From an uncultured Bacilli bacterium (GTDB lineage Bacteria > Bacillota_I > Bacilli_A > RF39 > UBA660), in contig CALVSA010000003.1 of assembly GCA_944358825.1 (NCBI GenBank), positions 1 through 61,144 of the forward strand: a DNA stretch of 61,144 nucleotides, given 5' to 3'. Shown one piece after another: positions 13,050 to 40,983 of the stretch. The notes below the pieces were generated by a model. The model made no database searches. It saw only the letters and a list, made by a program, of their open reading frames with translations, and was not told the origin of the DNA. Position numbers and translations under genes: made by a program. Position 1 is the first letter of the stretch; each line of letters opens with the position of its first letter.

Positions 13050-13102
13050 AATTTTCACCTCTCTAATATATTATATACATTACATTTCAAATTATCAATC
13101 CT

Positions 13103-13135: not shown

Positions 13136-13197
13136 ATTTTAAATAATAAATTTAACTTTAAATGTAAAAATTTTCAAACGCAAAATATATAAATAAA

Positions 13198-13221: not shown

Positions 13222-13266
13222 CTTAAAATATATAATAAAGCTCAAAAGTTCGAGCAAATTCTTCTC

Positions 13267-13350: not shown

Positions 13351-13355
13351 TTAAA

Positions 13356-13432: not shown

Positions 13433-13451
13433 ATTATTTGCTTGCTAATTA

Positions 13452-13480
13452 ATAATATCACATAATTTTAAAATTATCAA
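13452..13480 (-). promoter_or_regulatory. Sigma-A-type promoter for the tRNA pair
   Basis: On the minus strand: TTGATA, a 17-nt spacer, then TATTAT, about 20 nt upstream of the tRNA 5' end. Confidence 0.45.
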
Positions 13481-13552
13481 TAATTTAAATAAAAAAAATG
13501 AAAAAAATATTAAATTTGTGATATTTTGCCATATTATAAATAGGTGAAATTT

Positions 13553-14635: not shown

Positions 14636-14662
14636 ATAGAGTACAATTAAGTTGGTGATATT

Positions 14663-20567: not shown

Positions 20568-21821
20568 ATGTTTTCTAAAGCAATACATAAGCGTATTAAA
20601 ATAGTTTTATTAGTTATAATTTTTTTGTTTGTTTTAATTGTTTGTAAAGTTTTTTATATCCAAGTGATTGATTATGATAAATTAAATGACTTGGCTAATT
20701 CTTTATGGAGTAGGAATTTACCAATTGAAGCAGATCGTGGACGTATTTATACTAGTGATAGTAAAGTAGTTGCAGATAATTTAACAACTGTTAGTTTAGT
20801 GTTGATTCCTAATCAAATAAAAGATAAAGAAAAAGTAGCACAAGATATAGCTAGTATATTAGAAGTTGATGTAGAAGCGATTAATGAGCATATTTATAAG
20901 AAGTCTTCTATAGAAAGAGTTCATCCAGAAGGAAGAAGATTATCTTATGAAGTAGCAGATAAGATTAATGCTCTAAATTATGATGGGGTATATTTAGTTA
21001 AGGAAGCTAAAAGGTATTATCCTAATGATTTTTTACTTTCTCATGTTTTAGGATATGTTGGAATTGATAATCAAGGACTTAGTGGTTTGGAGTTACAATA
21101 TGATACATATTTAACTGGGGCAGCAGGGGCAATTAAATATTATTCGGATGCAAAGGGGCAACGATTACGTCTTGCTGAATCTTATGTTGAACCACAAAAT
21201 GGAATGGATATTTATTTAACTGTCAATTATGATATTCAAACTTCTATAGAAAGAGAACTTAGTAATGTTATGGAGAAATATAATGCCGATGGGGCATGGG
21301 CAATTGCAATGGAACCTTCGACGGGAAAGATTTTGGGTATGGCTTCTTATCCGTCTTTTAATCCTAATAATTATCAAGATTATAGTATTGAAGAGATTAA
21401 TCGTAATTTAGCTATTTGGGCTACTTATGAGCCTGGTAGTACTTTTAAGATTGTAACTTTGGCAAGTGCTCTAGAAGAAGATGTAATTAGTTTAGATGAT
21501 ACTTTTTATGATGGTGGTTCAGTTAGGGTTGAAAATGCTCGTATTAAATGTTGGAAGCATGGAGGTCATGGACAACAAACTTTTTTAGAAGTGGTCCAAA
21601 ATAGTTGTAATCCTGGTTTTGTTGAAATAGGACAGAGACTAGGAAAAGAAAATTTGTTTAAATATATTGAAAATTTTGGTTTTGGTGATAAGACTGGTAT
21701 TGATTTAAATGGAGAGGGGAAGGGAATATTATTTTCTCTTGATAAAGTAGGTCCAGTTGAACTTGCTACTTCTAGTTTTGGTCAGGGTGTATCAGTTACT
21801 GCAATTCAACAAGTTGTCTAA
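20568..21821 (+). CDS. spoVD: N-terminal fragment (415 host-encoded codons) of a split class B penicillin-binding protein, SpoVD/PBP2B-like
   Basis: TM anchor, the PBP dimerisation region (RGRIYTSD..., LGYVGIDNQGLSGLE), SxxK as STFK and SxN as SCN. The ORF ends ...GQGVSVTAIQQ followed by VV* read from the inserted DNA. The KTG motif is absent. Confidence 0.9.
   Translation: MFSKAIHKRIKIVLLVIIFLFVLIVCKVFYIQVIDYDKLNDLANSLWSRNLPIEADRGRIYTSDSKVVADNLTTVSLVLIPNQIKDKEKVAQDIASILEVDVEAINEHIYKKSSIERVHPEGRRLSYEVADKINALNYDGVYLVKEAKRYYPNDFLLSHVLGYVGIDNQGLSGLELQYDTYLTGAAGAIKYYSDAKGQRLRLAESYVEPQNGMDIYLTVNYDIQTSIERELSNVMEKYNADGAWAIAMEPSTGKILGMASYPSFNPNNYQDYSIEEINRNLAIWATYEPGSTFKIVTLASALEEDVISLDDTFYDGGSVRVENARIKCWKHGGHGQQTFLEVVQNSCNPGFVEIGQRLGKENLFKYIENFGFGDKTGIDLNGEGKGILFSLDKVGPVELATSSFGQGVSVTAIQQVV
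21796..21820 (+). other. attL of element 1
   Basis: Host half-site TTACTGCA (21796-21803), shared core CAACAA (21807-21812) and element-end inverted repeat GTTGTCTA (21813-21820). Confidence 0.7.
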
Positions 21822-22001
21822 TAAATGATACCCTTACTATAACAAGAGGATTAAATAGTAAATATACCAAAAAATATGATGTTGAGTATGAGTATAGGTG
21901 CTTGATAAATATATAAGTCTAAAATTGCTAAATGATTATAATTTAGTAATTTTTTTGTGGATGTTTAATTTTAAACATTTTAAATGATATAATAAATATT
22001 A

Positions 22002-22922
22002 TTGGAGTTGATTATTATTAATACATTATTATTTGAAGAACACACAGATATGTTGTTAGAAATACTTGAAAAAAGTAACATAGATAATAAAGAAAAAGAA
22101 TATCGAAAAAATGAATTATTAAAAGTTTATAGTAAGATGGTAGAAACTAGAAAAATTGATAATAAATATTATAATATTTCACATGAAATAAGAACTTTGG
22201 ATTTTCTTTCTAATTTTAATAATTTATATATTACACAAGATCATCTTAGTAAACCAGGATGTGATTTTAAAATATCTGACAAGTATGAGATAGAATGCGT
22301 TTGCAGTTCATCTGGAAATGAAAAATTAAATGGTCTAAATAAATTTCATGGAAGTGGTATGTTTGATTATAATAAAAAGGAACAAATTATATTAACTAGA
22401 TTAACTCAATCGATAAAAGAAAAAAAACAATTTTATATTGAACATATTAATAATGGAACTATATCAGTTAATATGCCTTATATTATATTTTTAGGACTTG
22501 GTAATTTATCATATGAAACATTTGCTGGAACTTTTGGTTTTTTATTAAATAAAATATTGTTTGGCGTTGGTCAAGAAGTTTTACTTATAAATAAGAAAAC
22601 TAATAAAGTTGAAAAAGTCGAGTATTCACATAATTTAAACATTAAAAAGCATAATGGAGTCGAAATAGATTGTAATATATTTTGTAATAGCGATTATGAT
22701 TGTGTAAGTGGAATACTTTTTTCTACAGCTAGCTTAGGTGAAAAATATAATAAAAATAATACATTTTTATTTATTAATCCCCATGCAAAAAATAAAATCA
22801 AAGCATATGATTTTCCAAATATTATATATTGGAAAGCAAAAAAAGAAAATAACAATTACATTTACTTACCAAGATATAGAGGAAAAAATTTAAATAATTA
22901 TTTAAAAAAACATTATTGGTAA
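22002..22922 (+). CDS. Hypothetical protein (306 aa)
   Basis: TTG start preceded by the SD ttggag. No confident domain. The segment GCDFKISDKYEIECV is only vaguely nuclease-like. Confidence 0.4.
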   Translation: MELIIINTLLFEEHTDMLLEILEKSNIDNKEKEYRKNELLKVYSKMVETRKIDNKYYNISHEIRTLDFLSNFNNLYITQDHLSKPGCDFKISDKYEIECVCSSSGNEKLNGLNKFHGSGMFDYNKKEQIILTRLTQSIKEKKQFYIEHINNGTISVNMPYIIFLGLGNLSYETFAGTFGFLLNKILFGVGQEVLLINKKTNKVEKVEYSHNLNIKKHNGVEIDCNIFCNSDYDCVSGILFSTASLGEKYNKNNTFLFINPHAKNKIKAYDFPNIIYWKAKKENNNYIYLPRYRGKNLNNYLKKHYW

Positions 22923-23022
22923 AAGATATTTAATTTTACACTTAATTGATAATTAATCTTAATAATATATTTTCAAACACGATTAAATATGATATAATTT
23001 AATCGTGAAAGGAAACAATAAT

Positions 23023-23610
23023 ATGGAATACAGAAATAAGATTTTAAATTTATTTAAAAATGATTACTTAACGACTAAAGATGTTAATAAAAATAATATT
23101 CCAAGATTTTATTTAACTAAACTTATTAAAGAAAATAAAATAGAAAGAGTAAGTCGTGGAGTATATATTAAGAAAAATGAACTAGTTGATGAGTTTGTGA
23201 TTTTGCAAAGCAAAAGTAAAAATGCTATTTACTCAAATACAACTGCTTTATATTTGCACGGCTTTTCTAATAGAATTCCTATTAAATATGATATTACTAT
23301 TAATAGTGGTTATAATGGTTCTCTTCAAAAGGAAAATAATGTTAATTTATTTTATACAAAAAGAGAATTATTAGAGTTAGGAGTAATTAACTATAAATTA
23401 GATTCTGGTAATATTATTAGAGTTTACGATTTAGATAAAACTATTTGCGACATTATTAAAAATAAAAAGAAAATAGATGCTGAAATTTTTAATAAGGCTA
23501 TTAGAGGATATTTTTATAGTAAAAAGAAAAATGCGTTAAAACTATATGAATATGCTAAAAAAATGAATATTTATAATAAAGTAATGGATACTTTCGAGCT
23601 GCTTGAATAA
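23023..23610 (+). CDS. AbiEi-like (type IV TA antitoxin family) DNA-binding protein, with no AbiEii partner
   Basis: MEYRNKILNLFKNDYLTTKDVNKNNIPRFYLTKLIKENKIERVSRGVYI... is the typical AbiEi_4 N-terminal wHTH. ATG 23023 follows the SD gaaagga. Confidence 0.65.
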   Translation: MEYRNKILNLFKNDYLTTKDVNKNNIPRFYLTKLIKENKIERVSRGVYIKKNELVDEFVILQSKSKNAIYSNTTALYLHGFSNRIPIKYDITINSGYNGSLQKENNVNLFYTKRELLELGVINYKLDSGNIIRVYDLDKTICDIIKNKKKIDAEIFNKAIRGYFYSKKKNALKLYEYAKKMNIYNKVMDTFELLE

Positions 23611-23651
23611 ATAAGAATACAAAAAACATAATTTAATAAATGAGGTTATAT

Positions 23652-24440
23652 ATGAAAAATGGATTTGAAATTTTATTAACTTATTGGTATGGCATACCTT
23701 CAATGCCAGAAAAACGTATTACAAAAATAAAGAATGCAGGATTTAAATATTTATCACTACATTGGTGTGATGAGTATGAATCTTCAAATGGCAAAAAAGA
23801 AGAAATTTTTAATAAGTGCAAATTAAATGGCTTACAAATATTGGTATTTCATTTGCCTTTTGAAAAAGCAAATGATTTATGGAAAAATGATGCTTCTGGC
23901 AGACAATTGTTTAGCATTTATAAGCAAAGCATATTAGATGCACATAATAATGATGTTGAGTATGTGGTTATGCATTTAAACTCTGATTCTAAAAAACTCG
24001 AAAATATCGAAATTGGTTTAAAAAGAATAGCTGCATTATTAAAATATGCCGAAGAACTTAATGTAAATATTGCTTTTGAAAATTTACAAACAGAAGATCA
24101 ATTAGATAAAATTGAAGACATGTTAAATAATTATTCAAGTGCATGTTTATGCTTTGATGTAGGTCATAACAATATTAAATATAGTGATTTTATTAATTTA
24201 CATAAAGAAAAAATCAAAATAATGCATATTCATGATAATTTAGGAAAAACTGATACTCATCAAACACCTTTTACTGGTACCGTGAATTGGAAAAAAGTAT
24301 ATAATTTAATTAAAGAAATAAATAATCATTGCTTATTTGTGTTTGAAGTGCAGAAGCAAGCGAATGAAGAAGAAACCCCTTTTTTAAAAAATGTATATCT
24401 TGCTTATGAAAAAATGAAAAAAGATTTAGAAAAAAATTAA
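23652..24440 (+). CDS. Xylose isomerase-like TIM-barrel protein (sugar phosphate isomerase/epimerase, inosose dehydratase-type fold)
   Basis: Pattern of VMHL, IAFENL, CFDVGH and MHIHDN metal-ligand-like motifs. Confidence 0.65.
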   Translation: MKNGFEILLTYWYGIPSMPEKRITKIKNAGFKYLSLHWCDEYESSNGKKEEIFNKCKLNGLQILVFHLPFEKANDLWKNDASGRQLFSIYKQSILDAHNNDVEYVVMHLNSDSKKLENIEIGLKRIAALLKYAEELNVNIAFENLQTEDQLDKIEDMLNNYSSACLCFDVGHNNIKYSDFINLHKEKIKIMHIHDNLGKTDTHQTPFTGTVNWKKVYNLIKEINNHCLFVFEVQKQANEEETPFLKNVYLAYEKMKKDLEKN

Positions 24441-24455
24441 AGGAGAGATATTTAT

Positions 24456-25685
24456 ATGGGTAAAAATATTACATTAGTTTTAAAAGAAGATTTGGGACAT
24501 ACAAATTTTGAAATTGTCGAAAGAAAAGGCCAAGGTCATCCAGATACTTTGAGTGATACTTTAGCTGAAAAATTATCAAATGCTTATTCTAAATATACTT
24601 TGAAACATTTCGGAGCCGTTTTACATCACAATTTTGATAAAGTAGGAATGATGGGAGGTAAGTGTGAGGTTGAATTTGGCCATGGGAAAATGATAGAACC
24701 TATAAGAGTTTTATTAAATGGTCGTGCATCTAGTAAATTTGGTAATACTATAATAAATGTAAAAGAGCTTCTTATTAATGAGACCAAAAAGTTTTTTAAC
24801 GATAACTTTCCAATGCTTAATTTTGAAAAAGATGTTAGAATCATATATGAAGTTAGTGAAGGAAGTAGTCCTGGTGGTGTAAAAGGACATGAAAGTAAAA
24901 GACATAGATGGTTTGAGCCAGAAACTTTAGATGACCTTAATGAATTAAAACATCTTAATTGTAATGATACTTCAATGGGATGTGCGTTTTATGGATATAG
25001 TATATTAGAAAACATGGTGTATAAATTGGAAAGAAAATTAAATTCAAAAGAATTTAAGAAAAATCATATATGGCTAGGTTCTGATATAAAAATTATGGGT
25101 TTTAGAGAGGATAATAAAGTGAGTATTACAATGTGCATACCTCAATTATGTACTTATGTAAGGAATGTTACAGAATATTTAAATAATAAAGCTCAAATAG
25201 CGGAATATATTAAAACCTTTATTCATAGTTTATATCCAAATGTACAATTGGAATTGTATATTAATACAAGAGACAAAATTGATGAAAACAACACTGATTT
25301 ATATTTAACATTTACTGGTTCATCAATTGAAATGGGTGATGAAGGATTTGTTGGACGTGGTAATAGGATGGGAGGATTAATAACTCCAAGAAGATTTTAT
25401 ACAATGGAAGGCATTTGCGGGAAAAACCCTATTTATCATACTGGGAAAATGTATTGTGTTGCCTCATATATAATTGCAAAAAAAATATATGAGAAATGTG
25501 GAGTTAATTGTTCAGTAGAAATGATTGGTCAAAGTGGGCAGCCTTTATCTGACCCATTTAAAATTACTATTTATACCGATAAAAAAATTGATTATGATGT
25601 TTGTGATAAAATTGCAAGTAATGTATTAAATGACTTTGGTAAAATATCAATGGAGATTTTAGATGAAAAATATCCAATGTGTTAA
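24456..25685 (+). CDS. Archaeal-type S-adenosylmethionine synthetase (methionine adenosyltransferase, PF01941-like)
   Basis: EIVERKGQGHPDTLSD, LHHNFDKV, NDTSMG, SDIKIMG, LTFTGSSIEMGDEGFVGRGNRMGGLITP and GKNPIYHTGKMY align convincingly with the Methanocaldococcus MAT sequence as I recall it. Confidence 0.85.
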   Translation: MGKNITLVLKEDLGHTNFEIVERKGQGHPDTLSDTLAEKLSNAYSKYTLKHFGAVLHHNFDKVGMMGGKCEVEFGHGKMIEPIRVLLNGRASSKFGNTIINVKELLINETKKFFNDNFPMLNFEKDVRIIYEVSEGSSPGGVKGHESKRHRWFEPETLDDLNELKHLNCNDTSMGCAFYGYSILENMVYKLERKLNSKEFKKNHIWLGSDIKIMGFREDNKVSITMCIPQLCTYVRNVTEYLNNKAQIAEYIKTFIHSLYPNVQLELYINTRDKIDENNTDLYLTFTGSSIEMGDEGFVGRGNRMGGLITPRRFYTMEGICGKNPIYHTGKMYCVASYIIAKKIYEKCGVNCSVEMIGQSGQPLSDPFKITIYTDKKIDYDVCDKIASNVLNDFGKISMEILDEKYPMC

Positions 25686-26610
25686 TATTCCAGATAAATA
25701 TGCTCCATATAGTATTGAAATTGAATTAACAAACTATTGTAATGCTCACTGTGTTTTTTGTCCTAATAATTGTTCAAAAAGGGAAAGAGGATTTATTGAT
25801 AAACAAAAATTATATGATTTTTTAGAAAAACAAAAAGCAATTAAAGTTAATAATTGGTTTAATAAAAAATTTAACACTTTAGATTTTCCAAAGATAGTAT
25901 ATGCAGGGTTAGGTGAACCACTTTTGCACCCAGATTTTTTAGAAATAGTTAAATACACTAAAGAACTAGGGTTTCAAGTAGAAATAGTAACTAATGGTTT
26001 ATTACTAAATAAAAAAATTGTAGATAAATTGATAGAATTAAAAGTTGATTCTCTAGCAATTAGTCTACATAGCATGAATAAAGAAATTTATAATAAAATT
26101 ACAGGACTGTCTTTAAATAATGTTTTACCAAACGTTACTTATGCTTTAGAACAATATAAAAAAACCAATGCAAAAATTCAACTATGGCGAATAAAGCCCC
26201 TTTCAAACATGAAACAAGAAACAAAAAAAGATGAGGAAATATATAAAGAATATGTAAAATCATATCCTAATGTTATTGTATTAGGACCATCAGAGCCTTG
26301 GGAACGAGACATGAATAATCCTACTTCTTGTAATTTAGTAAATGATGATCCAAGTAATGGAATATGGTGTAGAAAATTGTATTATACCTTAAATATTGCA
26401 TATACTGGAGAAATTGTAATGTGTTGTAATGATTTTAATAGAATTTCTGTTAATATGGGAAACATCTTTGAATCTGAAAATCTTTCGGAAACTATAAGAG
26501 AAAAGATTCTAAATAAACAATTTATTCCAGAAATATGCAAAAAATGTCGAAGATGGAAAGATAATGAATTAGAAGAAATATTTGAAAAATATGGTGATAA
26601 AAATGAATAA
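25663..26610 (+). CDS. Radical SAM enzyme with a Cys-rich C-terminal (SPASM/twitch-like) extension
   Basis: CxxxCxxC as LTNYCNAHCVFC. A GLGEPLL glycine-rich motif. C-terminal cysteines (WCRK, MCCND, CKKC). Overlaps the SAM synthetase gene by 23 nt. Confidence 0.85.
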   Translation: MKNIQCVNIPDKYAPYSIEIELTNYCNAHCVFCPNNCSKRERGFIDKQKLYDFLEKQKAIKVNNWFNKKFNTLDFPKIVYAGLGEPLLHPDFLEIVKYTKELGFQVEIVTNGLLLNKKIVDKLIELKVDSLAISLHSMNKEIYNKITGLSLNNVLPNVTYALEQYKKTNAKIQLWRIKPLSNMKQETKKDEEIYKEYVKSYPNVIVLGPSEPWERDMNNPTSCNLVNDDPSNGIWCRKLYYTLNIAYTGEIVMCCNDFNRISVNMGNIFESENLSETIREKILNKQFIPEICKKCRRWKDNELEEIFEKYGDKNE

Positions 26611-27331
26611 AAAGAGAATATTATTATTTTGTGCCCATCCAGATGATGCTGAATTATGTGCTGGTGGAACAATAAAAAAATTTGTAAGCAAAGGTTATAA
26701 AGTTAAAGTTGTAATTATGACTAATGGTGGTGTAGGAAATAACGATATGAACGTTTCTAAAACAGTAGATATTAGAAACGTAGAGATGCAAAATGCGGCA
26801 AGTTTTTTAAATTATGAAGTTAAAAATTTAAATATAAACGATGGTGAAGTGTTACCTACATTAGAATATAGAAAACTTGTTATTGATGAAATAAGAAAGT
26901 TTAAACCAGATATTATTATGACTCATAGAAGCAATGATTATCACCCAGATCATCGATACACAAGTATATTAGTTCAAGATTCATTAGTACTAATTTGTAC
27001 TGGAAATTATTGTCCAACATATAGTCCTTTAAATTATACCCCAATAACTTTATTTTTCTGGGATAGGTTTACGAAGCCAAATTCATTTAATGCTGATATT
27101 GTATATGATATAACAAATGAATTTGAAGATAAAGTAGAAGCTTTATCAAAACACAAATCACAATATAAAAGTATAGATGAATGTAGAAATGTTTTAATTG
27201 ATATTAATAATGAGTTGAAACAAAATATTGAATCAAGCTACAAATATATTGAAGCATTTGAAATTTGTGAGTATGCAAAAAAAGATGAATTAATAGCATT
27301 TTTAGAGTCAAAAAGCAAAATTTTTGGTTAG
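26603..27331 (+). CDS. PIG-L/LmbE-family N-deacetylase
   Basis: ILLFCAHPDDAELCAGG and DYHPDHRYTS motifs. Confidence 0.85.
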   Translation: MNKKRILLFCAHPDDAELCAGGTIKKFVSKGYKVKVVIMTNGGVGNNDMNVSKTVDIRNVEMQNAASFLNYEVKNLNINDGEVLPTLEYRKLVIDEIRKFKPDIIMTHRSNDYHPDHRYTSILVQDSLVLICTGNYCPTYSPLNYTPITLFFWDRFTKPNSFNADIVYDITNEFEDKVEALSKHKSQYKSIDECRNVLIDINNELKQNIESSYKYIEAFEICEYAKKDELIAFLESKSKIFG

Positions 27332-27342
27332 GAGTAGATAAA

Positions 27343-28551
27343 ATGAAAGTTTTGTTAATATCAAATTATAATATTGTCGAAGGTAGAGGCCCAATGTTTA
27401 GATTAATGAATATGATTCCATATTTAAATACAAAATGCAATATAGAATTGTGTTCATTAGGCAAGATTGATGACGTAGTAATAAAAATGGCATTAGAAAA
27501 CAAGATTAAATATTATGAAATCAGTTATAAAACAAAAGGGTGGTTTGTTAAAAATACTAAAGAAATAGCTAATAATATAATTGATATAGCAAACCAAGAT
27601 AATATAGATTTAATTGTTTTGACTTGGGAAATTTGGGATGTCGCAGTAGCTTTACAGAATAATATAAGTAAATGTAATGCAAAATTAGTAATAACTATGC
27701 ATTCTATCCCTTTTGTTGCTGCATCAATTAAGACAGGTAATTATGTAATAGATTATATAAAGAAAATTTTATTTGAACCACGATTTATGATTAAAAAATA
27801 TTTAGTTTGTCGCATTCCACAAGTAAATCATTATATGCATAAATTTAATATATTAACAATGACTAAAACGGTAGAATATAAATTAAATAAATACTTTAAA
27901 AATATTAATTTGTATTTAGCATATCCAGGGTATGCTACTAGTCTACCATTAATACCACAAAACATAAATTATCAATATGATTTTGTTTATATGGCGAAAT
28001 TTGAATATGGTAAAGGTATATATGAAATCATTAAAATAATGAAAGAAATAAAAAAAGTAAAACCCAATTTCAAATTAGCTTTAGTTGGTGATTTTACATT
28101 TAAAGATGAAGAAATCAAATTTTTTAATCGAATAAAAAAATTTGATTTAGAAAATAATATAAATTATTTAGGTTGGCTGGATGGTACAAAAAAATATGAA
28201 ACCATTATAAATAGCAAAATATTTTTATATCCTTCATTTGCAGGAGATACGTTTTCAATTTGTTTGTTAGAAGCACTTTCGTGTGGTAAACAAATTGTTT
28301 GTTACAATGTTCCTTTTGTAAGAGATAATTTTAATATTAAAACTGTACATAAAATTCCAGTATTTAAAAATAAGTTATTTGCCCAAAAAGCAATTGAACT
28401 TTTAAAAGAAAAAAATTACAATGTTAATGAATCAATTAATTTTGTAAAAAATAACTTTTCTTCATGGAATAAAGTGGCTAATGCAGAATATAATGCATAT
28501 AAAAATATTATGGATAATAAAAATGGACAAACAAATATTAAAAGATTATAA
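27343..28551 (+). CDS. GT-B fold glycosyltransferase (GT4/GT1-like)
   Basis: C-terminal FLYPSFAGDTFSICLLEALSCGKQIVCYNVPF (EX7E-type region). Confidence 0.75.
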   Translation: MKVLLISNYNIVEGRGPMFRLMNMIPYLNTKCNIELCSLGKIDDVVIKMALENKIKYYEISYKTKGWFVKNTKEIANNIIDIANQDNIDLIVLTWEIWDVAVALQNNISKCNAKLVITMHSIPFVAASIKTGNYVIDYIKKILFEPRFMIKKYLVCRIPQVNHYMHKFNILTMTKTVEYKLNKYFKNINLYLAYPGYATSLPLIPQNINYQYDFVYMAKFEYGKGIYEIIKIMKEIKKVKPNFKLALVGDFTFKDEEIKFFNRIKKFDLENNINYLGWLDGTKKYETIINSKIFLYPSFAGDTFSICLLEALSCGKQIVCYNVPFVRDNFNIKTVHKIPVFKNKLFAQKAIELLKEKNYNVNESINFVKNNFSSWNKVANAEYNAYKNIMDNKNGQTNIKRL

Positions 28552-29350
28552 TTTGAAAAACATTACATTAAAGTGTAAATCCAACTATGGCATTATATAT
28601 GAAGCTATTTCTGAAGATTATAATAAACTTATAGTAAAAATAAATTTTGACAAAAAAAATTATCATGATTCGTGCAAGTATTATACTTATTTTAAAAATA
28701 TGAAATTATGTAAAATGTATGAAAATGATGACAAAAATAATATTCAATTATTAGAATATATTAATGGCGATAATCTTTTTTGTATTTCTGATTTTAATAA
28801 AAGAATTAAAATAGGATATGATTACTTTTATAATTGGTCAACAAAAATAATAACCATAAATAATGATAATGACATATCTTTTGAAAACCAGGTTAATGTA
28901 ATGATTGATAACTTAAAAAATATGTCGCTATCTAGTAAAGTTATTAAATTAGTAACAGAATTTGAGAAAAAAGCAAAACACTTTTTTCAAACATATAATA
29001 ATTCATACTTGCTACATGGTGATTTACATCATTATAATATGCTATATGATGGCAAAACAGTTACAGCAATTGATTTATCACCACGGCAAGCTAGTTTTGC
29101 AATCGAAATAGCAAAGTTTATTGAAAATGAATTATTTAATAATATAGGTAATATATTTCAAATTTTAAATGCATTTTTATTAATATATAAATTTGAAATC
29201 ATAAGCTGTGATGAATTATTAGAGGGATTATTTATTGATTCATGTTACAGAACATTTGATACTTTCATTGAAAATAAAGATGTCAGTGAACTTGAAAAAG
29301 GAATATATATGAATTATGAAATCTTAAAATTTATGGAAAGTAGGGCATAA
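28523..29350 (+). CDS. APH/choline-kinase-family phosphotransferase
   Basis: Brenner-type motif LLHGDLHHYNMLYDG...AIDLSP. The start is uncertain (28481 or 28523). Confidence 0.65.
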   Translation: MDKQILKDYNLKNITLKCKSNYGIIYEAISEDYNKLIVKINFDKKNYHDSCKYYTYFKNMKLCKMYENDDKNNIQLLEYINGDNLFCISDFNKRIKIGYDYFYNWSTKIITINNDNDISFENQVNVMIDNLKNMSLSSKVIKLVTEFEKKAKHFFQTYNNSYLLHGDLHHYNMLYDGKTVTAIDLSPRQASFAIEIAKFIENELFNNIGNIFQILNAFLLIYKFEIISCDELLEGLFIDSCYRTFDTFIENKDVSELEKGIYMNYEILKFMESRA

Positions 29351-29352
29351 AA

Positions 29353-30489
29353 ATGAATTATAAGGAATTTGAACAAATAATAATAGGTTATATGCAAGCA
29401 AAAGGATGGACTTTATCTATTGCTGTTGATGGCTCGGAAAGACTTGCTTTAGAAAAAAATTATAATCCTAATTTTACCAATAAATCAAAAGATAAATTTT
29501 TGATAAATGATGATGAATTTTATGATAGATTAAAAAAGGGATTAGATAAATTAAATATTACATATAAAAATTTTAATTCCATTGATAATCCGTATACAGA
29601 TACCGATTTTATTGTTGCTGGATTACAAACCATAAATCCTATTATATATGGCAGTTCTGAAGTACAACTTGATAAATGGATTTCTTTTCAACCAGTTATT
29701 AGATTAATTGAAAAAGATAAATGCGGAGTGGAGGAAGGATATTTTTCTTCCTTTGTCAATGTTTGTGAAATTTCGACAAATACAAATTATGCTGACTATA
29801 TTCAAGATATTGAAAATTGGATTGATATTTTATCTATCTGTTCTCTACATTCAAGTGGTTTACAATTAATTTTAAAACCAACTACCACAGCATATAATGG
29901 AGTAGGATTAGAATTTAATTATAAAGGCTTGGAACTTGGTCAAGCAAATTTATATAATTTTAATATTAATGAACAAAATGTAATGATGTCTGACTTTGGA
30001 TTTGGCTATGAGAGAATTTTGTGGGCAATTAATGGCGGAAAAAATTTTTTTGCACCATTTGTATCTAAATATGATTATTTATTTGGCGATTTAAAGGAAG
30101 TTGATAGAATAAGAACACTTACTTTAATGGCAATGTCTGGTATTAAAGGTGGTTCATCTGGCAAATCAAAACACATGAGAAATTTAGTTAAAGAAGCTTT
30201 TGGGATTAATATTATTCCTAACATTAACGAACAAATAAAACAGTATTATGAATTTTATTCAAAATTTATTTCTTCATTGATTGAATTAAATGAAGTAAAT
30301 GGTATAATTAATAATGAAGTAGCATTGAATATAAAGAAAAAAATATTAAAACAAGCAGGCATTAGTAATTATTCATCTTTAAGCAGTGCAGATATTGAAA
30401 CTGTTTGTAAAACAATTTTTCTTGACAAAGTGCACAAAGAGAATAAATTTACAAAAATAAAGGAAATTAAAGGAGGTAAAAGAAAATGA
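29353..30489 (+). CDS. Stand-alone class IIc (AlaRS-like) aminoacyl-tRNA-synthetase catalytic-core homologue; candidate amino acid ligase
   Basis: The order of segments VAGLQTI / QPVIRL / YFSSFVNVCEIS / NYADYIQDIENWIDIL / LGQANLYNF / SDFGFGYERILWAINGG parallels AlaRS AGM..F / QKCIR / HHTFFEMLGNFS / DYFK..AI.WAW / EIWNLVF / DTGMGLERL. At 378 aa it has no room for the tRNA-binding or editing domains. Confidence 0.5.
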   Translation: MNYKEFEQIIIGYMQAKGWTLSIAVDGSERLALEKNYNPNFTNKSKDKFLINDDEFYDRLKKGLDKLNITYKNFNSIDNPYTDTDFIVAGLQTINPIIYGSSEVQLDKWISFQPVIRLIEKDKCGVEEGYFSSFVNVCEISTNTNYADYIQDIENWIDILSICSLHSSGLQLILKPTTTAYNGVGLEFNYKGLELGQANLYNFNINEQNVMMSDFGFGYERILWAINGGKNFFAPFVSKYDYLFGDLKEVDRIRTLTLMAMSGIKGGSSGKSKHMRNLVKEAFGINIIPNINEQIKQYYEFYSKFISSLIELNEVNGIINNEVALNIKKKILKQAGISNYSSLSSADIETVCKTIFLDKVHKENKFTKIKEIKGGKRK

Positions 30490-31100
30490 AATTATTATTA
30501 GCAGGTGGTGGAGAACCTGAACAAGTGAAACCACTAGACGAATATTTTGCAAATTACGTAAAAGAAGGTAAGGTTTTATATATTCCTGTTGCAATGTACA
30601 AAATTCCTTATGATGAATGTGAAAGTTGGTTTAGGGAAACATATGCAAAATATAATATATATAATATAGATGTATGTACAGATTTGAAAAAGGCTCCCAA
30701 TTTAAATGAATATAAAGCCGTATTTATAGGAGGAGGAAACACTTTTAAATTATTAAAAGAAATTAAAGAAAGTAATTTCGATTATGCTCTTACAGAATAT
30801 TTAAAAAATGGAGGCTTTGTTTATGGTGGTTCAGCTGGTGCTATTATTTTTGGAAAAACAATAAAAACTTCTAGCCATGCCGATAAAAATTTTGTTAATC
30901 TTAAAGATTTAAATGGTTTAAATTTAATAAAAGGATATGATGTTTGGTGTCATTATAATGAAAAAAAGGATTTAAATAATGTTTTAAAATTAGAAAATTC
31001 TACTGTTGTACTTTATGAAGAATCTGGTGTTTTATTTGATGGCGAAAAATTTATAACAGTTGGTAAAAATCATTTAATTTTTCCTGATGATTTTGAATAG
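30486..31100 (+). CDS. Peptidase S51 (dipeptidase E/cyanophycinase-like) family protein
   Basis: FIGGGNTFKLL and the nucleophile elbow YGGSAGAIIFG. Confidence 0.7.
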   Translation: MKLLLAGGGEPEQVKPLDEYFANYVKEGKVLYIPVAMYKIPYDECESWFRETYAKYNIYNIDVCTDLKKAPNLNEYKAVFIGGGNTFKLLKEIKESNFDYALTEYLKNGGFVYGGSAGAIIFGKTIKTSSHADKNFVNLKDLNGLNLIKGYDVWCHYNEKKDLNNVLKLENSTVVLYEESGVLFDGEKFITVGKNHLIFPDDFE

Positions 31101-31168
31101 ATATAAAAATTTATATTCAAAGAAAAATAGTTTAAATATACGTTTTAATCATAAAGGTGGTGTTTTAA

Positions 31169-32107
31169 ATTTTTAAAAGTGATGAACAAGAGCAAGAATA
31201 TATTTTAAAGTTAAATGAAATATTAAGTGCTTTTCTTAAATCTAATGAGAAAATAGTAGAAATAGAAAACACTTCTGGGGGTATTGCTAATAAAGTTATT
31301 AAACTTACTACTAACTTTAATCATAAATATATATTCAAAATTTATAAAAAGAAAAGGAATCAAATACTTCCATTTGAACTAATGGACTTTTTAGAAGAAA
31401 ATGATATAAATGTTGTAAAACCTAAAAATAAAAAACCAATTATCTTTGAAAACACGGATTGTTATTTATTTGATTATATAGAAAATGTTCCAACAATTTT
31501 TGATAATGCAACGGCATCTTATTTAATTAATCTTTTAAAGATAATTTCAAGATTTAAAACATCCATCAATAATGATGAATATTATTATAAAATAAAATGC
31601 GATAATGAATATAAACTTTTAAAGGAAAAGAAAAATTATATACTCGATGATGATATTGTTAATCGAGTTTTAAAAAGATATGATCAAATTAAAAATCTAC
31701 CTATAAATAATGAAAAGGAGATAGTTCATTCTGATATTAGTACATCAAACTTATTGACAGCAAAAGATGGATACTATTTAATTGATTTTGATGAAGTTAG
31801 ATTTACTTCTAAATTATATGATTTGGCAGTTATTTTGGTAAAATTTTTCTTCGATGGTAAAAATATTGATATAAAAAATGCTAAATCATTCGTTGATTTA
31901 TATTTGAAAAATTTTAGCGAATATGATTATAAAGACTGTTACAATGTTTTTGAATATTATGTTGTAAAACAATTATTAGAAAAATTTTCGGATTATGAAA
32001 TATATGGTATTGATTTATATTCAAAGCAACAGCAACAAGATGATTTTAGAAATTGGATTTATTATTTTGAACATTTAAATTTAATTAAACAAATTTTTGG
32101 TTTATAA
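31169..32107 (+). CDS. APH-family kinase with no canonical start codon for its N-lobe (possible ATT start)
   Basis: The frame is open from 31169. The N-lobe (NTSGGIANKVIKL..., YIFKIY) lies upstream of the first ATG at 31382. The catalytic motif is VHSDISTSNLL...LIDFDE. The SD aaaggtgg is at 31153-31160. Confidence 0.55.
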   Translation: MFKSDEQEQEYILKLNEILSAFLKSNEKIVEIENTSGGIANKVIKLTTNFNHKYIFKIYKKKRNQILPFELMDFLEENDINVVKPKNKKPIIFENTDCYLFDYIENVPTIFDNATASYLINLLKIISRFKTSINNDEYYYKIKCDNEYKLLKEKKNYILDDDIVNRVLKRYDQIKNLPINNEKEIVHSDISTSNLLTAKDGYYLIDFDEVRFTSKLYDLAVILVKFFFDGKNIDIKNAKSFVDLYLKNFSEYDYKDCYNVFEYYVVKQLLEKFSDYEIYGIDLYSKQQQQDDFRNWIYYFEHLNLIKQIFGL

Positions 32108-32179
32108 TTTATGTAAAATTTAAAAATTTAATCAACATAAAATAAGCACATTATGACATGAATTAGACATAAAATAAAC

Positions 32180-32207
32180 TTGACTCCGTTTTGTCAAGTG
32201 CTATAAT
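32180..32207 (+). promoter_or_regulatory. Near-consensus sigma-A promoter with extended -10, overlapping a 6-bp inverted repeat
   Basis: TTGACT (32180-32185), a 16-nt spacer, then TGcTATAAT (-10 at 32202-32207). CTTGAC...GTCAAG is a dyad across the spacer. Confidence 0.6.
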
Positions 32208-32233
32208 ATAGTAAAATATTAAGAAATTATGTG

Positions 32234-32261
32234 GAGAGGAACTAAATTCTTCTCTTTTTTT
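32234..32261 (+). terminator. Strong intrinsic terminator only about 30 nt downstream of that promoter
   Basis: GAGAGGAA-ctaaa-TTCTTCTC (8 bp including one G-U pair), followed by a T7 run. Confidence 0.65.
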
Positions 32262-32324
32262 CTTTGAAAGAAGGTGTTATATAAAATAAAATTAAAGGAA
32301 GCACATATTTTTGATGAATTAGTA

Positions 32325-32580
32325 ATAAGTGGTCACTATTTATAAAAATAGTAGCCACTTTTTTTGTTGGCATTACAAGAACATTTATATATGAGTAGCC
32401 ACTTCTACTTATAAAAGTAGTCATTTTTGCAAGTGCAAAAATAGTAGTGACACCACTATAATCCCTATATTTTATAAAAGGTAAATGAATATGTGGTGTC
32501 GTTCTTCTTATGCTCATTAAAAATATGCAGTATTTTTACTATAAAAAACACCCCCAAAATAGCAAAAGTGGCTACTCATA
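32325..32580. repeat. Iteron-like repeats of the (A/T)AGTAGCCACTT family, direct and inverted
   Basis: aatagtagccacttttt (about 32347), atgagtagccacttct (32391-32404), aaagtagtcattttt, aatagtagtgacaccact, the inverted copies aagtggtcactattt (about 32327) and aaaagtggctactcat (about 32565). Confidence 0.7.
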
Positions 32581-32603
32581 ATTTTAAGAAAGGAAAAATA
32601 AAT

Positions 32604-32921
32604 ATGATATTTAGAACAAATAAAATTACAAATTATACGAAGATTGATAATAGATATTTGGAAGATAAAAACATTTCTTTAAAGGCTAAAGGATTATTAA
32701 CTTTAATGTTATCTTTACCAGATAATTGGAAATTTAATGTTAATGGTTTATGTCTTTTATGTAAAGAAAGTAAAAATGCAGTTAATAGCGCAATAAAAGA
32801 ATTAAAGGAAAATAAATATTTAGAGGTAGAAAAAACTTATGATGAAAGTGGGAGATTTATTTATGAATATATCATTTATGAATATCCAGATGACCCAAAA
32901 GGACATCTCGATTTACCATAA
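32604..32921 (+). CDS. Winged-helix replication-initiator/DnaD-like N-terminal domain protein (short)
   Basis: MIFRTNKITNYTKIDNRYLEDKNISLKAKGLLTLMLSLPDNWKFNVNGL...AVNSAIKELKENKYLEV resembles Firmicute phage/plasmid replisome-organiser N-termini. ATG 32604 is preferred (SD aaaggaaaa). Confidence 0.5.
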   Translation: MIFRTNKITNYTKIDNRYLEDKNISLKAKGLLTLMLSLPDNWKFNVNGLCLLCKESKNAVNSAIKELKENKYLEVEKTYDESGRFIYEYIIYEYPDDPKGHLDLP

Positions 32922-33187
32922 CTGGATAATTAGATACTATTAATAACTAATATATTAATAAATTAAAAATAAATAGATAAAGTTGATAAAACAAAAATTT
33001 AATTTTTTAATAAAAACCTCTTGAAAATTCTATTTTTTTAAGTGATAAATATTAAAACAAAAAATTAGTTTATTGATACTTAATTTAACCTACAAGAGGT
33101 TTTAATATTGTTCATAATCAGTTATTAGTATAAAAATTTAAAGCCTCTTAAAATGGCTTAAATTAAAAATGAAAGGATGTGCTTAAT

Positions 33188-33613
33188 ATGTATTTAAAAA
33201 ATGCAACTAATGAGGTTAAAAAAATAACAGAGAAAATAATTGAACTGGATAAGGAAAATAAACTTAAATTTATCAGTTATGTTTTAAACTTATGGAATAA
33301 TAATCAAATTAATAGTTTAAATGAAACTAACCCTGATTTATTAGATGATAGTATTTGTATTGATATATTTAATCCAAGTAGTATTGATTACTATTATTTA
33401 GTAATTAAACTAAATGAATATTGGAATTATAAATATAAACTTTATCAGCTTTATCGAAAAGAATATAAAAGTGTAATAACTTTATTTGAAAAGTTATCTT
33501 TTAAAGAAAAGATAGATGTACTTGCAGAAATATTTTTAATTTTAGAACATGATAAATTACTACCAGATAATGTTGATGGCTATGAAATTGCTAGAATGAT
33601 TATAAAATATTAA
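33188..33613 (+). CDS. Hypothetical protein
   Basis: ORF with the SD aaaggatg. No recognisable domain. Confidence 0.4.
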   Translation: MYLKNATNEVKKITEKIIELDKENKLKFISYVLNLWNNNQINSLNETNPDLLDDSICIDIFNPSSIDYYYLVIKLNEYWNYKYKLYQLYRKEYKSVITLFEKLSFKEKIDVLAEIFLILEHDKLLPDNVDGYEIARMIIKY

Positions 33614-33636
33614 ATATTGAAAAACTAAATTGTTAT

Positions 33637-33704
33637 TTGAAAACTTAATATTTTCGGATAATAATTTAGTCTAATTTTGTCCTTATAAGGTATTAAGTTT
33701 TCAA
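33637..33704. repeat. 12-bp perfect inverted repeat enclosing a 10-bp palindrome, upstream of the recombinase operon
   Basis: TTGAAAACTTAA (33637-33648) pairs with TTAAGTTTTCAA (33693-33704). CCTTATAAGG at 33681-33690 lies between them. Confidence 0.8.
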
Positions 33705-33778
33705 TTTTTGTAGAACTTATTACCTTAAGTTCTTTTTTAGTTTTTATAAAAATAAACTTAAAAGAAAGGACAGAGTAT

Positions 33779-33985
33779 ATGGAAATTACAAATAAAATTC
33801 CATCTAGAATAATTGAATTAGAAACAAGTATCAAACTGCTTGAATACTTAAAAAGAAAAAATGTTATAGATGATGGAATGTATAACTTTTGTATTAATAA
33901 ATTAATGAATAAACTTACATTGGAAAAAAGTAAAATGAAAGATGATTATATAAATAATATTGATAATTACAAAATATTAACTTAG
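33779..33985 (+). CDS. Small hypothetical protein immediately upstream of recombinase 1 (candidate accessory factor/RDF)
   Basis: 68-aa ORF ending 10 nt before the recombinase ATG. No motif recognised. Confidence 0.35.
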   Translation: MEITNKIPSRIIELETSIKLLEYLKRKNVIDDGMYNFCINKLMNKLTLEKSKMKDDYINNIDNYKILT

Positions 33986-33995
33986 GAGGTAACTC

Positions 33996-35675: not shown

Positions 35676-36291
35676 ACCTTATATTGTTGATAGTATTGTA
35701 GAACCAGAAACTGGAGAAATTATTCAGAAATTTGAACCAACGAAAGTAAGAAGTGTTATTAGTAGTAATACTAGTGAAGAAGTTAGATTAATATTAGAGA
35801 AAGTAGTTGCTTATGGAACTGGTCGTAATGCTTTTATCGAAGATTATCGTGTCGGCGGTAAAACTGGAACAGCACAAAAGGTTAATAATGGTGCTTATAT
35901 GGTAGGAAATTATATTTTATCTTTTATTGGTTTTTTACCCGCTAATGATCCAAAGGTAATAGTATATGTTGCAGTTGATAATCCTAAAGGAATAACACAA
36001 TATGGAGGAACAGTATCTGCACCAATTGTTAAAGCTATTTTAACTGATGCTATTAGTGCTTTAGATATTGAAAAACCATCTGGAGGTTTAGAAAAAGAAT
36101 ATCAATGGTATGAAAAAGAATATATTAAGCTTCCTAATGTAGTTGGAATGACTTTGGATGAAGCAAAAAAAGTATTATCTGATTTTACTATTGAATATAC
36201 TGGTAGTGGAAAGGTAGTAAAATCGATGTCTCCATCTAGTGGAACTTCTGTGATGCTTGGAAGTAAAGTACGACTTATGTTAGGTAATTGA
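35632..36291 (+). CDS. spoVD: C-terminal fragment of the split SpoVD/PBP2B-like PBP (KTG motif plus one PASTA domain)
   Basis: The frame is open from 35632: ITAVSAAINGGTLYKPYIVDS..., GGKTGTAQK, and the PASTA-like LPNVVGMTLDEAKKVL...GSKVRLMLG. There is no start codon or SD of its own at the junction. Confidence 0.9.
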   Translation: MTAVSAAINGGTLYKPYIVDSIVEPETGEIIQKFEPTKVRSVISSNTSEEVRLILEKVVAYGTGRNAFIEDYRVGGKTGTAQKVNNGAYMVGNYILSFIGFLPANDPKVIVYVAVDNPKGITQYGGTVSAPIVKAILTDAISALDIEKPSGGLEKEYQWYEKEYIKLPNVVGMTLDEAKKVLSDFTIEYTGSGKVVKSMSPSSGTSVMLGSKVRLMLGN

Positions 36292-36375
36292 CAAATTCTT
36301 ATGTAAAATACCTTAAAATGAGACAAAAAGTTACAATAAGTATGTTATAATCTTATTAGAAATGGAAGTGAAATT

Positions 36376-37368: not shown

Positions 37369-37380
37369 AAAGAGGGGGTT

Positions 37381-38428: not shown

Positions 38429-38661
38429 TTGGGAGTTTTTAATCTAATTTCCAAAGATAAAAAATATATAAAAAATGCTAAAATTTATAAAAAATCAAAA
38501 AAATTACAGATAAAAAATGAAGGTAACATTACCATTACTGCAAAGAAGTTGTTTTGGTAGTATAAAGAGTTTTGCATATAAGATTAAATAAAGATATTCA
38601 AATATATTGATTTATTTATTTTTTTTTGATAATATAAATAGCAGTAAATGAGGTGTTGTGT

Positions 38662-39885: not shown

Positions 39886-39897
39886 ATTATCTATTTT

Positions 39898-40878: not shown

Positions 40879-40983
40879 ATTTTCTCCTTTTGGATATTAT
40901 ATCATTTTTTTATAAAAATATAAATCTTTTTTGTTGAGATTATTTTATTAAAATAGTATAATTATATTGTAAAGGAGGACTTT

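Follow-up and report, generated by a model that had tools for sequence, protein, structure and literature searches.

The window analysed here, a stretch of 61,144 nucleotides (contig CALVSA010000003.1, assembly GCA_944358825.1), comes from an uncultured Bacilli bacterium of the RF39 group (UBA660). An open reading frame (ORF) and profile scan of the window found nine head-to-tail ORFs at 23652-32107 on the plus strand, here called g1 to g9 (Table 1). A preliminary description of this DNA had named a protein family for each of the nine genes, and profiles, folds and motifs bear these names out; profile searches returned the predicted families for g1-g6, g8 and g9, and g7 had no family match. 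The nine genes are most likely one biosynthetic operon for a small molecule, and the operon is most likely the cargo of a serine-recombinase element, which interrupts a penicillin-binding protein (PBP) gene.

Table 1 Features of the operon and of its carrier element in the window
Feature	Position	Strand	Evidence
g1, xylose-isomerase-like TIM barrel of the ketose 3-epimerase or inosose-isomerase type	23652-24440	+	PF01261 (AP_endonuc_2) 76 bits
g2, archaeal-type methionine adenosyltransferase (SAM synthetase)	24456-25685	+	PF01941 347 bits
g3, radical SAM enzyme with SPASM/twitch-like C-terminus	25663-26610	+	PF04055 67 bits, PF13186 24 bits, CNAHCVFC motif
g4, PIG-L/LmbE-family N-deacetylase	26582-27331	+	PF02585 100 bits; AHPDD and HPDH metal (zinc) motifs
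g5, GT4 retaining glycosyltransferase, BshA/MshA-like	27343-28551	+	PF00534 69 bits
g6, small-molecule kinase of APH/choline-kinase fold (kinase A)	28523-29350 (longest ORF from 28481)	+	RIO1 26 bits
g7, truncated AlaRS-like ligase, 378 aa, with aminoacylation domain and AlaRS-type helical tRNA-recognition domain	29353-30489	+	
g8, S51 (PepE/cyanophycinase-type) serine hydrolase	30486-31100	+	PF03575 (Peptidase_S51) 91 bits
g9, second APH-like kinase (kinase B), about 312 aa	31169-32107	+	APH match at residues 37-227 of the extended protein
Terminator-like hairpin and T-run closing the operon	32233-32255	+	stem of 9 pairs, then TTTTTTTCTTT
Carrier element, about 13.8 kb, inside a PBP transpeptidase gene	21807-35631		CAACAA direct repeat at the ends
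PBP N-terminal part, 417 aa	20568-21821		Transpeptidase profile positions 3-168
PBP C-terminal part, 207 aa	35668-36291		Transpeptidase profile positions 180-298 and PASTA
AbiEi-type winged helix-turn-helix regulator, directly 5' of the operon	23005-23610	+	PADLOC AbiEi E 1.7e-63
Large serine recombinase, right element end	33996-35675	+	Resolvase, Recombinase, Zn_ribbon_recom; phrog_95 integrase 375 bits

Structure of the operon

The window has a G+C content of about 25-26% and a strong GC skew. ORFs overlap at four of the operon junctions (g2/g3 by 23 nt, g3/g4 by 8-29 nt, g5/g6 by 29-71 nt, and g7/g8 by 4 nt, as ATGA), and gaps of 2-15 nt occur at three others. The translational coupling proposed earlier does not extend to g8/g9, which is uncoupled, with a spacer of 68 nt if g9 starts at an ATT codon versus 281 nt from an ATG. 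All nine genes are under purifying selection (dN/dS 0.03-0.27). A promoter scan was uninformative at 25% GC (131 sites observed versus 129 expected). Rfam searches of the window and of eight related loci gave neither a riboswitch nor a T-box, and there is therefore no specifier codon to name the amino acid used by the pathway. None of the g1-g9 proteins scores above the equivalog cut-off of any NCBIfam model for a primary or envelope pathway, and we therefore assign the operon to no known pathway of either kind.

The second kinase gene, g9, probably starts at ATT 31169 and not at ATG 31382. Its product shares 53% identity over 303 aa with a 308-aa protein of the related locus L013, in a single frame from 31193, and no ATG, GTG or TTG is found in the upstream stretch of homology. 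The ATT lies 6 nt past a Shine-Dalgarno-like AAAGGTGGTG. This arrangement is kept in L006-L008, where the extension is stop-free, conserved and under purifying selection (dN/dS 0.12-0.27). The conserved in-frame homology, together with the upstream Shine-Dalgarno/ATT pair, gives the length of about 312 aa and the 68-nt spacer. The first 71 codons of the gene (31169-31381) escape standard ORF calling. An alternative genetic code was rejected as the explanation for the missing start, because all other ORFs are intact under table 11.

Tailoring, sugar and S-adenosylmethionine (SAM) enzymes

The only PDB sequence match of the TIM-barrel protein g1 is MJ1311. Its gene starts at ATG 23652 behind a GAGG Shine-Dalgarno sequence and is kept in clusters L003, L004, L018, L021, L028 and L030. 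The SAM synthetase g2 aligns over its full length with the archaeal methionine adenosyltransferase (MAT) 4hpv (254 bits), retains the GHPD, HHN.DK, NDTS and GRGNR...GKNP motifs, and scores below the NCBIfam equivalog cut-offs. All PDB matches of the radical SAM protein g3 are weak, the best being BtrN (32 bits), followed by viperin, BlsE and MoaA; these solved relatives act on small-molecule substrates in every case. Against the prokaryotic viperin (pVip) model NF038283, g3 scores 72 bits, below the cut-off of 180, and its PADLOC pVip match (E 5e-22) is confined to the radical SAM core at residues 18-175.

The deacetylase gene g4 has its probable start at ATG 26591 or 26603. PDB matches of its product are diacetylchitobiose deacetylase, BC1534 and BshB1, and the best NCBIfam match is also BshB1, at 115.9 bits against a cut-off of 182.5; scores for the MshB equivalog (31.7 bits, cut-off 224) and for Mca (35, cut-off 277) are lower still. 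The glycosyltransferase g5 is closest among solved structures to BshA 5d00 (residues 76-379, E 6e-7), then to 3mbo and PimA. It scores 45.4 bits against the NCBIfam BshA model, for which the cut-off is 273.7, and no MshA model was matched in the NCBIfam scan. In the hydrolase g8, a GGSAGA nucleophile elbow and an HYN motif align to Lmo0363. From its gene neighbourhoods, g8 appears to be the obligate partner of the ligase g7.

The AlphaFold2 (AF2) model of kinase A (g6; pLDDT 92) has as its top Foldseek matches the choline kinase LicA, APH(2'')-Ia, APH(9)-Ia, APH(4)-Ia and the amicoumacin kinase AmiN, and the motif HGDLHHYN...IDLS is present. Kinase A is encoded directly 5' of the ligase in every Firmicute variant except L028.

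An alanyl-tRNA synthetase (AlaRS)-like ligase

The g7 protein has no Pfam or NCBIfam match, and a direct search of PDB sequences returned nothing. Its kinship with AlaRS became visible only through a family profile and structure prediction. An AF2 model built from 15 homologues (pLDDT 83) retrieved AlaRS catalytic fragments as the top Foldseek matches (E 7e-11, TMq 0.62), with the glycyl-tRNA synthetase (GlyRS) alpha subunit next. The family profile gives three collinear matches to Archaeoglobus fulgidus AlaRS, which cover motif 2, motif 3 and the mid-domain tRNA-recognition signature. The truncated AlaRS-like ligase recognized in the preliminary description is confirmed by both approaches.

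Motif 2 of the family profile reads sfQPVIRL where this AlaRS has sQPCIRL, and motif 3 reads DfGfGYERilWA where it has DtGyGLERfvWA. Four residues, the Arg of motif 2 and the Asp, Glu and Arg of motif 3, do not vary among close g7 relatives, nor in a superfamily alignment of 30 sequences that includes distant members, and the fold looks able to bind ATP and an alpha-amino acid. Three further residues, Cys124, Cys138 and His166, are invariant in the close family, but not across the superfamily; these could be metal ligands. The Asn of the AlaRS PSN motif, which helps in reading the G3:U70 pair, aligns with a Ser in g7.

The carrier element

The locus has three hallmarks of an integrated element: its serine recombinase lies at one edge, the target gene is cut precisely in two, and a short direct repeat is present. 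The CAACAA copies lie at 21807-21812 and 35626-35631, and the PBP halves, when rejoined, read ...TAIQQ|ITAVSAAINGGTLYKPY. Apart from the operon, the element has four annotated genes, encoding the AbiEi-type regulator, a 306-aa protein, a truncated DnaD-like domain and the recombinase. Domain, PADLOC and phrog scans identified no phage structural or conjugation genes in the element, in agreement with the earlier view that the cargo is neither phage-like nor that of an integrative and conjugative element (ICE). PADLOC, run on ten window proteins, recognized only AbiEi and a generic radical SAM core. No AbiEii is among the ten, so that the pairing of an AbiE toxin-antitoxin system is missing from this set; the AbiEi-type protein is a possible regulator of the operon.

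Two other small proteins of the element are of note. The 306-aa protein, encoded 5' of the AbiEi gene (the two genes together span 22002-23610), has no Pfam match, its only match being phrog_8571. A 142-aa protein (32493-32921) matches only the N-terminal DNA-binding domain of DnaD-like/phage replication initiators, whose profiles span 300-450 positions, and looks like a truncated remnant.

The element also occurs in another species, on the metagenome-assembled genome (MAG) contig L006, at the same PBP codon position. Cargo proteins of the two are 98-100% identical while the flanking PBP sequences have diverged (58-69% identity), which indicates a recent transfer between species. The AbiEi gene has a dS of about 0.8 relative to L006 and L007, far above that of the nine operon genes (0.01-0.24), and the operon is therefore a recombination unit separate from it.

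The interrupted PBP gene adjoins mraY and an FtsW/SpoVE-family gene, in a cell-wall gene cluster (20568-38373). Sporulation genes of the host, encoding SpoIIIAH-like and GerM-like (Germane) proteins, occur at 55432-57284. The split PBP may be SpoVD-like, and the element may be of the skin type, excised during sporulation. It resembles the skin-type elements of spore formers in its edge recombinase, in the precise split of a gene, in the short direct repeat that restores the frame and in the sporulation genes of its host. Unlike in those elements, the cargo is a biosynthetic operon, and the split gene encodes a PBP (possibly SpoVD-like) instead of being sigK or spsM.

Conservation and variants of the gene cluster

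The close g7 family is rare, with 21 clusters among 5.8 billion proteins. An exhaustive profile search of 50%-identity clusters (1.8 billion representatives) recovered 361 g7-family representatives at E <= 1e-3. Among the 150 matches listed, nearly all are stand-alone proteins of about 300-450 aa, and none is a full-length AlaRS. No relative of g7 was found in phage, plasmid or IMG/VR collections.

We compared the gene neighbourhoods of g7 relatives in 17 distinct contexts. The order TIM barrel, MAT, radical SAM, PIG-L, GT4, kinase A, ligase, S51 is colinear in L018 (51-79% identity) and in L021-L023 (29-69%), and the flanks beyond this block are unrelated. Chance is excluded, because synteny persists in relatives at 29-69% identity. 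Genes for the ligase and the S51 hydrolase are neighbours in 14 of the 17 contexts and are fused in P0102 and P0196. The archaeal-type SAM synthetase occurs together with the ligase and S51 in Firmicutes, Bacteroidota and Patescibacteria, the taxa of distant members being the labels of the source records. In distant members, this core usually comes with a kinase of the APH or P-loop type and a radical SAM enzyme. Since distant members share the SAM synthetase, the ligase and S51, we take these three to be the conserved unit, and not the trio of GT4, LmbE and ligase highlighted in the preliminary description. The GT4, PIG-L, TIM-barrel and inositol-phosphate synthase genes appear, from their distribution, to be a recurrent elaboration of the core. 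Two alphaproteobacterial MAGs encode the ligase and S51 without the SAM synthetase, and have a radical SAM protein fused to, or encoded beside, a histidine phosphatase; in the variants with the radical SAM-histidine phosphatase fusion, these genes adjoin NrdD.

Several additional functions recur within the clusters of relatives. A myo-inositol-1-phosphate synthase (PF01658) is encoded in four lineages: in L018 its gene lies between those for the TIM barrel and MAT, in L021-23 it follows S51, and in L024/25 and L030 it is next to the core. Some variants have a UDP-GlcNAc 2-epimerase and a 354-aa protein in place of PIG-L and S51. Full-length seryl-tRNA synthetase (SerRS) genes occur within the cluster in four arrangements of relatives, with no T-box leader, and SerRS and other aminoacyl-tRNA synthetase (aaRS) paralogues are clustered in L013, L026 and L030. 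The L016 cluster includes an ABC-2 exporter, and KTI12/PSTK-like P-loop kinases take the place of the APH kinase in L027. Also present are Rel/SpoT-like proteins of 480 aa with HD, RelA_SpoT and TGS domains (L018:1760-3199, L013:2703-4148, L021:2820-4259 and L001:4606-6051). All four have an intact HDxxED hydrolase motif and a Glu-to-Gln change in the synthetase motif EXQIRT, and are probably hydrolase-only. The idea that the Rel-like gene is simply a conserved chromosomal neighbour was rejected, as its upstream flanks differ among loci.

In L026, the region 3' of a ligase::S51 fusion (11497-16977) encodes two tRNA-synt_2b/HGTP_anticodon proteins, a truncated tRNA-synt_2 protein, a methyltransferase and an S66 (MccF/LdcA-family) peptidase.

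A large serine recombinase is encoded beside the module in three of the 17 contexts (the window, L012 and L025); the others are next to transposases or in an ordinary chromosomal setting. The preliminary description asked whether the genes are conserved as a block and always ride on a recombinase element: co-conservation held, but constant linkage to such an element did not. The distribution is patchy, across Bacilli, Clostridiales, Alphaproteobacteria, Bacteroidota and Patescibacteria, often with recombinases or transposases nearby. Decayed copies were also seen. The GT4, ligase and radical SAM genes are frameshifted in L015 (6900-12050), a deletion in L009 (9459-10678) joins the start of a Rel-like gene to the last 225 ligase codons, and fragments of the SAM synthetase gene alone are left in L029 (10562-10898). 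We found no description of the cluster in literature on these gene-family combinations (AlaRS-like, S51, SAM synthetase, radical SAM, inositol-phosphate synthase, SerRS self-resistance and defence).

Comparison with characterized pathways

In mycothiol and bacillithiol biosynthesis, MshA/MshB/MshC and BshA/BshB/BshC carry out GlcNAc transfer, deacetylation and ATP-dependent amino-acid ligation, and MshC is a homologue of cysteinyl-tRNA synthetase (CysRS) (PMC6178380). The operon shares with these pathways (Ino1 and MshA-D; BshA-C) a GT4 enzyme (predicted here to transfer GlcNAc), a PIG-L/LmbE deacetylase and an aaRS-derived ligase, with the same implied order of chemistry. Its relatives carry an inositol-1-phosphate synthase, and g5 and g4 have their closest solved or curated counterparts in the bacillithiol enzymes BshA and BshB1. 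The mycothiol parallel drawn earlier gains support from these matches, from the synthase in four lineages and from the AlaRS-like assignment of g7. However, g7 derives from the class II enzyme AlaRS, whereas MshC is of the CysRS type (class I), and the bacillithiol counterpart is BshC; g7 is thus no MshC. The score of g4 is far below the MshB cut-off, both BshA and BshB equivalog cut-offs are likewise missed, and no BshC was found. Domain scans of the 21.8-35.7 kb region detected no MshD-type GNAT acetyltransferase and no phosphatase. The operon adds a radical SAM enzyme, a TIM-barrel epimerase, two APH kinases, an S51 hydrolase and a SAM synthetase, and, in contrast to the thiol pathways, it is mobile and has a patchy distribution.

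Among characterized enzymes, AcmF of Streptomyces is the closest functional precedent for g7. It is a truncated AlaRS-like, tRNA-dependent aminoacyl transferase of ascamycin biosynthesis, whose cluster includes an aaRS and a de-aminoacylating hydrolase (PMC12945691). AcmF is described as a stand-alone truncated AlaRS, reduced like g7 to the aminoacylation and tRNA-recognition domains, and it adds an amino acid to a small molecule, as we propose for g7. The likeness extends to the cluster, in which a full aaRS is encoded (AcmD there, SerRS in relatives of the operon) along with a hydrolase proposed to strip the aminoacyl group (AcmE there, S51 here). In contrast, AcmF has lost its adenylation residues and uses Ala-tRNA, whereas the Arg of motif 2 and the Asp, Glu and Arg of motif 3 are retained in the g7 family. 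The operon lacks sulfamate and nucleoside genes, and AcmE has an alpha/beta hydrolase fold, unlike the S51 fold of g8.

Among clusters for aminocyclitol aminoglycosides (butirosin, with BtrN, BtrM and BtrD; kasugamycin; hygromycin A), butirosin offers the best solved relative of g3, BtrN, and a GT4 and PIG-L pair, BtrM and BtrD. APH-fold kinases are a further shared feature, as are the inositol-phosphate synthase and UDP-GlcNAc 2-epimerase of operon relatives. However, the BtrN similarity of g3 is weak (32 bits), and domain scans identified no 2-deoxy-scyllo-inosose synthase, aminotransferase or dehydrogenase set in the operon. The hosts are anaerobic gut Firmicutes, candidate phyla radiation (CPR) bacteria and Bacteroidota, instead of actinomycetes or Bacillus circulans. 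A 2-deoxystreptamine pathway was rejected, since its defining partner genes are missing in the domain scans.

For clusters that make aaRS inhibitors (albomycin, with the SerRS AbmK; agrocin 84; and microcin C, with the MccF peptidase), the comparison is one of generally known cluster features. Similarities include SerRS in the clusters of several relatives, a peptidase paired with an aminoacylating enzyme, and carriage on mobile elements. Unlike these clusters, the window has no SerRS, and the operon has no siderophore, peptide-carrier or nucleotide-building genes.

The tunicamycin cluster encodes the dehydratase TunA, the epimerase TunF and the acyltransferase TunC alongside TunB, TunD and TunE. 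The tunicamycin parallel of the preliminary description did not stand, as domain scans of the operon and its relatives identified no Tun-specific partners (no SDR dehydratase, 4-epimerase, acyltransferase or acyl carrier protein). Because a class I ligase, MshD, BshC, 2-deoxy-scyllo-inosose synthase and the Tun partners were all looked for and are absent, we conclude that the operon is a member of none of these pathways. By analogy, it would be a small-molecule biosynthetic operon built on an uncharacterised enzyme module, and may work like a mycothiol/bacillithiol or aminoglycoside-type pathway.

Proposed pathway and alternatives

Families, folds, operon structure, co-conservation and mobility are observations, and to these we add a proposal for the chemistry that draws on family membership and gene neighbourhood. 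We hypothesize that the operon, carried by the serine-recombinase element, makes a small aminoacylated amino-sugar glycoside by mycothiol-like logic, a reading whose chances we judge to be even. In this scheme, g5 would move GlcNAc from UDP-GlcNAc onto a polyol, most likely myo-inositol(-1-phosphate) or a derived cyclitol. The acceptor would be supplied by the host in the case of the window, and several relatives encode the synthase in the cluster. The BtrN-like g3 and the ketose-epimerase-like g1 could tailor the cyclitol or sugar by oxidation and epimerisation, and g4 would remove the acetyl group to free the 2-amine. The ligase g7, which keeps the class II contacts to ATP and the alpha-amino acid, could then activate a small amino acid and attach it to the scaffold. 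The S51 hydrolase g8 would act as a unit with g7, either by helping in transfer or trimming or, like Mca, by working in the reverse direction as an amidase. Phosphorylation of the product or of intermediates by g6 and g9 could serve self-protection or be a step of the pathway, and g2 would provide SAM. The inositol-phosphate synthase found in four lineages strengthens the analogy to mycothiol. Relatives carry SerRS, an ABC exporter and a Rel-like hydrolase with a dead synthetase site, and the product is therefore most likely a bioactive compound directed against translation (an aaRS inhibitor or aminoglycoside-like), as opposed to a structural one. The earlier central proposal, a co-transcribed glycoside/aminoacyl pathway on a gene-interrupting recombinase element, is supported overall, given that no equivalog of a known primary or envelope pathway was reached and that the genes are co-conserved and colinear in L018 and L021-L023 at 29-79% identity.

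Several points weigh against this scheme. Domain scans of the window element identified no inositol-phosphate synthase, SerRS, exporter, acetyltransferase or phosphatase. Minimal relatives, among them L024, L001 and L027, have no GT4 or PIG-L but do have the SAM synthetase, ligase and S51, so the acceptor of the ligase is not a GlcN-glycoside in every variant. A role purely in SAM supply is doubtful because some variants have the SAM synthetase and no radical SAM gene; SAM may be a building block instead of a cofactor. The GT4 and PIG-L scores are far under the Bsh/Msh equivalog cut-offs, and SerRS could supply serine instead of conferring resistance. The assignment of the amino acid to the small size class (Ser, Ala or Gly) is a guess, and the product, substrates and activities of all nine proteins are predictions.

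If the product instead protected the cell from within, for example as a low-molecular-weight thiol or a redox or detoxification cofactor comparable to mycothiol or bacillithiol, g7 would take the role of MshC or BshC, and S51 that of an Mca/Bca-like amidase that recycles the glycoside after conjugation. The BshA-like g5, the BshB-like g4 and the inositol-phosphate synthase of relatives fit this. Opposing ligase and amidase activities are integral to the mycothiol and bacillithiol cycles (PMC6178380), and the ligase::S51 fusion is known here. The window element has no exporter, and metal binding by the invariant Cys124, Cys138 and His166 of the close g7 family is conceivable. However, these residues are not kept across the superfamily, and the block is accessory, mobile and patchy, with decayed copies (L015, L009 and L029), which is not expected of a core redox buffer. 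A disulfide reductase, an S-transferase and an acetyltransferase are all missing, and a thiol pathway has no use for the radical SAM enzyme, the pair of APH-type kinases, the exporter or SerRS; we consider such a metabolite rather unlikely. The tRNA-recognition-domain signature of g7 raises another alternative, in which the pathway acts on tRNA or another aminoacyl carrier: g7 would charge or modify tRNA, the attached amino acid would be converted by the kinases and S51, along the lines of PSTK/GatCAB routes, and SerRS would be the charging partner. The aaRS paralogues clustered in L013, L026 and L030, the KTI12/PSTK-like kinases of L027 and the TGS domain of the Rel-like protein are consistent with this, and AcmF is a precedent for a tRNA-dependent truncated AlaRS (PMC12945691). 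We nevertheless regard it as improbable, given that there is no tRNA gene in or beside the window operon and just one among eight relatives (a flank gene in L018), that the PSN Asn aligns with Ser in g7, and that the sugar and cyclitol enzymes are left without explanation.

The setting of the operon could also indicate a defence or conflict system of mobile elements, an extended analogue of viperins or of small-molecule anti-phage chemistry that makes or depletes a nucleotide-like or aminoacyl-nucleoside effector against phage replication or translation. The operon lies on a recombinase element and adjoins an AbiEi gene, g3 is weakly similar to pVip (E 5e-22), the flanks of L018 encode Bro-N, RhuM and a transposase, and relatives include the Rel/SpoT-like protein with its TGS domain as well as the alphaproteobacterial pairing of ligase/S51 with a radical SAM-histidine phosphatase fusion next to NrdD. 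The PADLOC matches of g3, however, are restricted to the radical SAM N-terminal core, and its 72 bits fall short of the NCBIfam viperin cut-off of 180. A sugar/cyclitol pathway of 8-11 genes with inositol-phosphate synthase resembles no known defence system, no sensor or effector nuclease was found, and phage, plasmid and IMG/VR collections gave no member of the family; we regard a defence function as improbable. Least probable, in our estimate very much so, is a locus for modification of cell-envelope glycans or teichoic acids. GT4 enzymes, deacetylases and, in relatives, UDP-GlcNAc 2-epimerase are common in envelope loci, and the element is inserted within a cell-wall gene cluster, but those wall genes belong to the host and lie outside the element. 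Domain scans of the window operon and of the called genes of relatives identified no polymerase, flippase, polyprenyl-phosphate transferase or membrane protein, and no NCBIfam equivalog was reached.

Returning to the proposed aminoacylated glycoside, a bolder extension, which we consider a long shot, is that the core defines a new type of natural-product machinery, spanning phyla, for stable mimics of aminoacyl-adenylates or aminoacyl-tRNA ends, for example a seryl conjugate. SAM would then donate adenosyl or aminocarboxypropyl groups stoichiometrically, with SerRS as the immunity target, and the Rel-like hydrolase would blunt the stringent response of the producer. The window version would be glycosylated and cyclitol-bearing, and would have been spread among gut spore formers by the recombinase element.

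Other features of the window

Just beyond the element, at 38653-41442, are a second radical SAM/SPASM gene, an opposite-strand gene for a GFO_IDH_MocA (inositol-dehydrogenase family) oxidoreductase and a NUDIX hydrolase gene. A second large serine recombinase of 524 aa (51334-52908; Resolvase, Recombinase and Zn_ribbon_recom) may mark a second integrative or intervening element. The sole G+C-rich stretch (40%), at 53110-55343 on the minus strand, encodes a 381-aa collagen-triple-helix repeat protein beside a GT2-TPR glycosyltransferase, a pair that resembles the BclA-type pair of the exosporium. Also on the minus strand, at 11754-13432, a 434-aa protein with Schlafen AlbA_2 and HATPase_c_4 domains is encoded beside tRNA-Leu and tRNA-Met genes.

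Implications

The ligase belongs to an unannotated protein family, with about 360 clusters and no Pfam model, that has a fixed partner in S51 and usually a second one in an archaeal-type SAM synthetase. If the proposed function is correct, tRNA-synthetase folds would have been recruited independently for the aminoacylation of amino sugars or small molecules at least three times, g7 being the third case after MshC and AcmF and the first on a class II AlaRS core that is still seemingly competent for adenylation. The near-identical element at the same PBP codon in two species indicates that pathways travel on small recombinase elements, and not just on plasmids and ICEs. The SerRS, exporter and APH-type kinases of relatives would, if the same reading holds, point to a translation-directed compound from uncultured anaerobic gut bacteria, a habitat that has been poorly mined.

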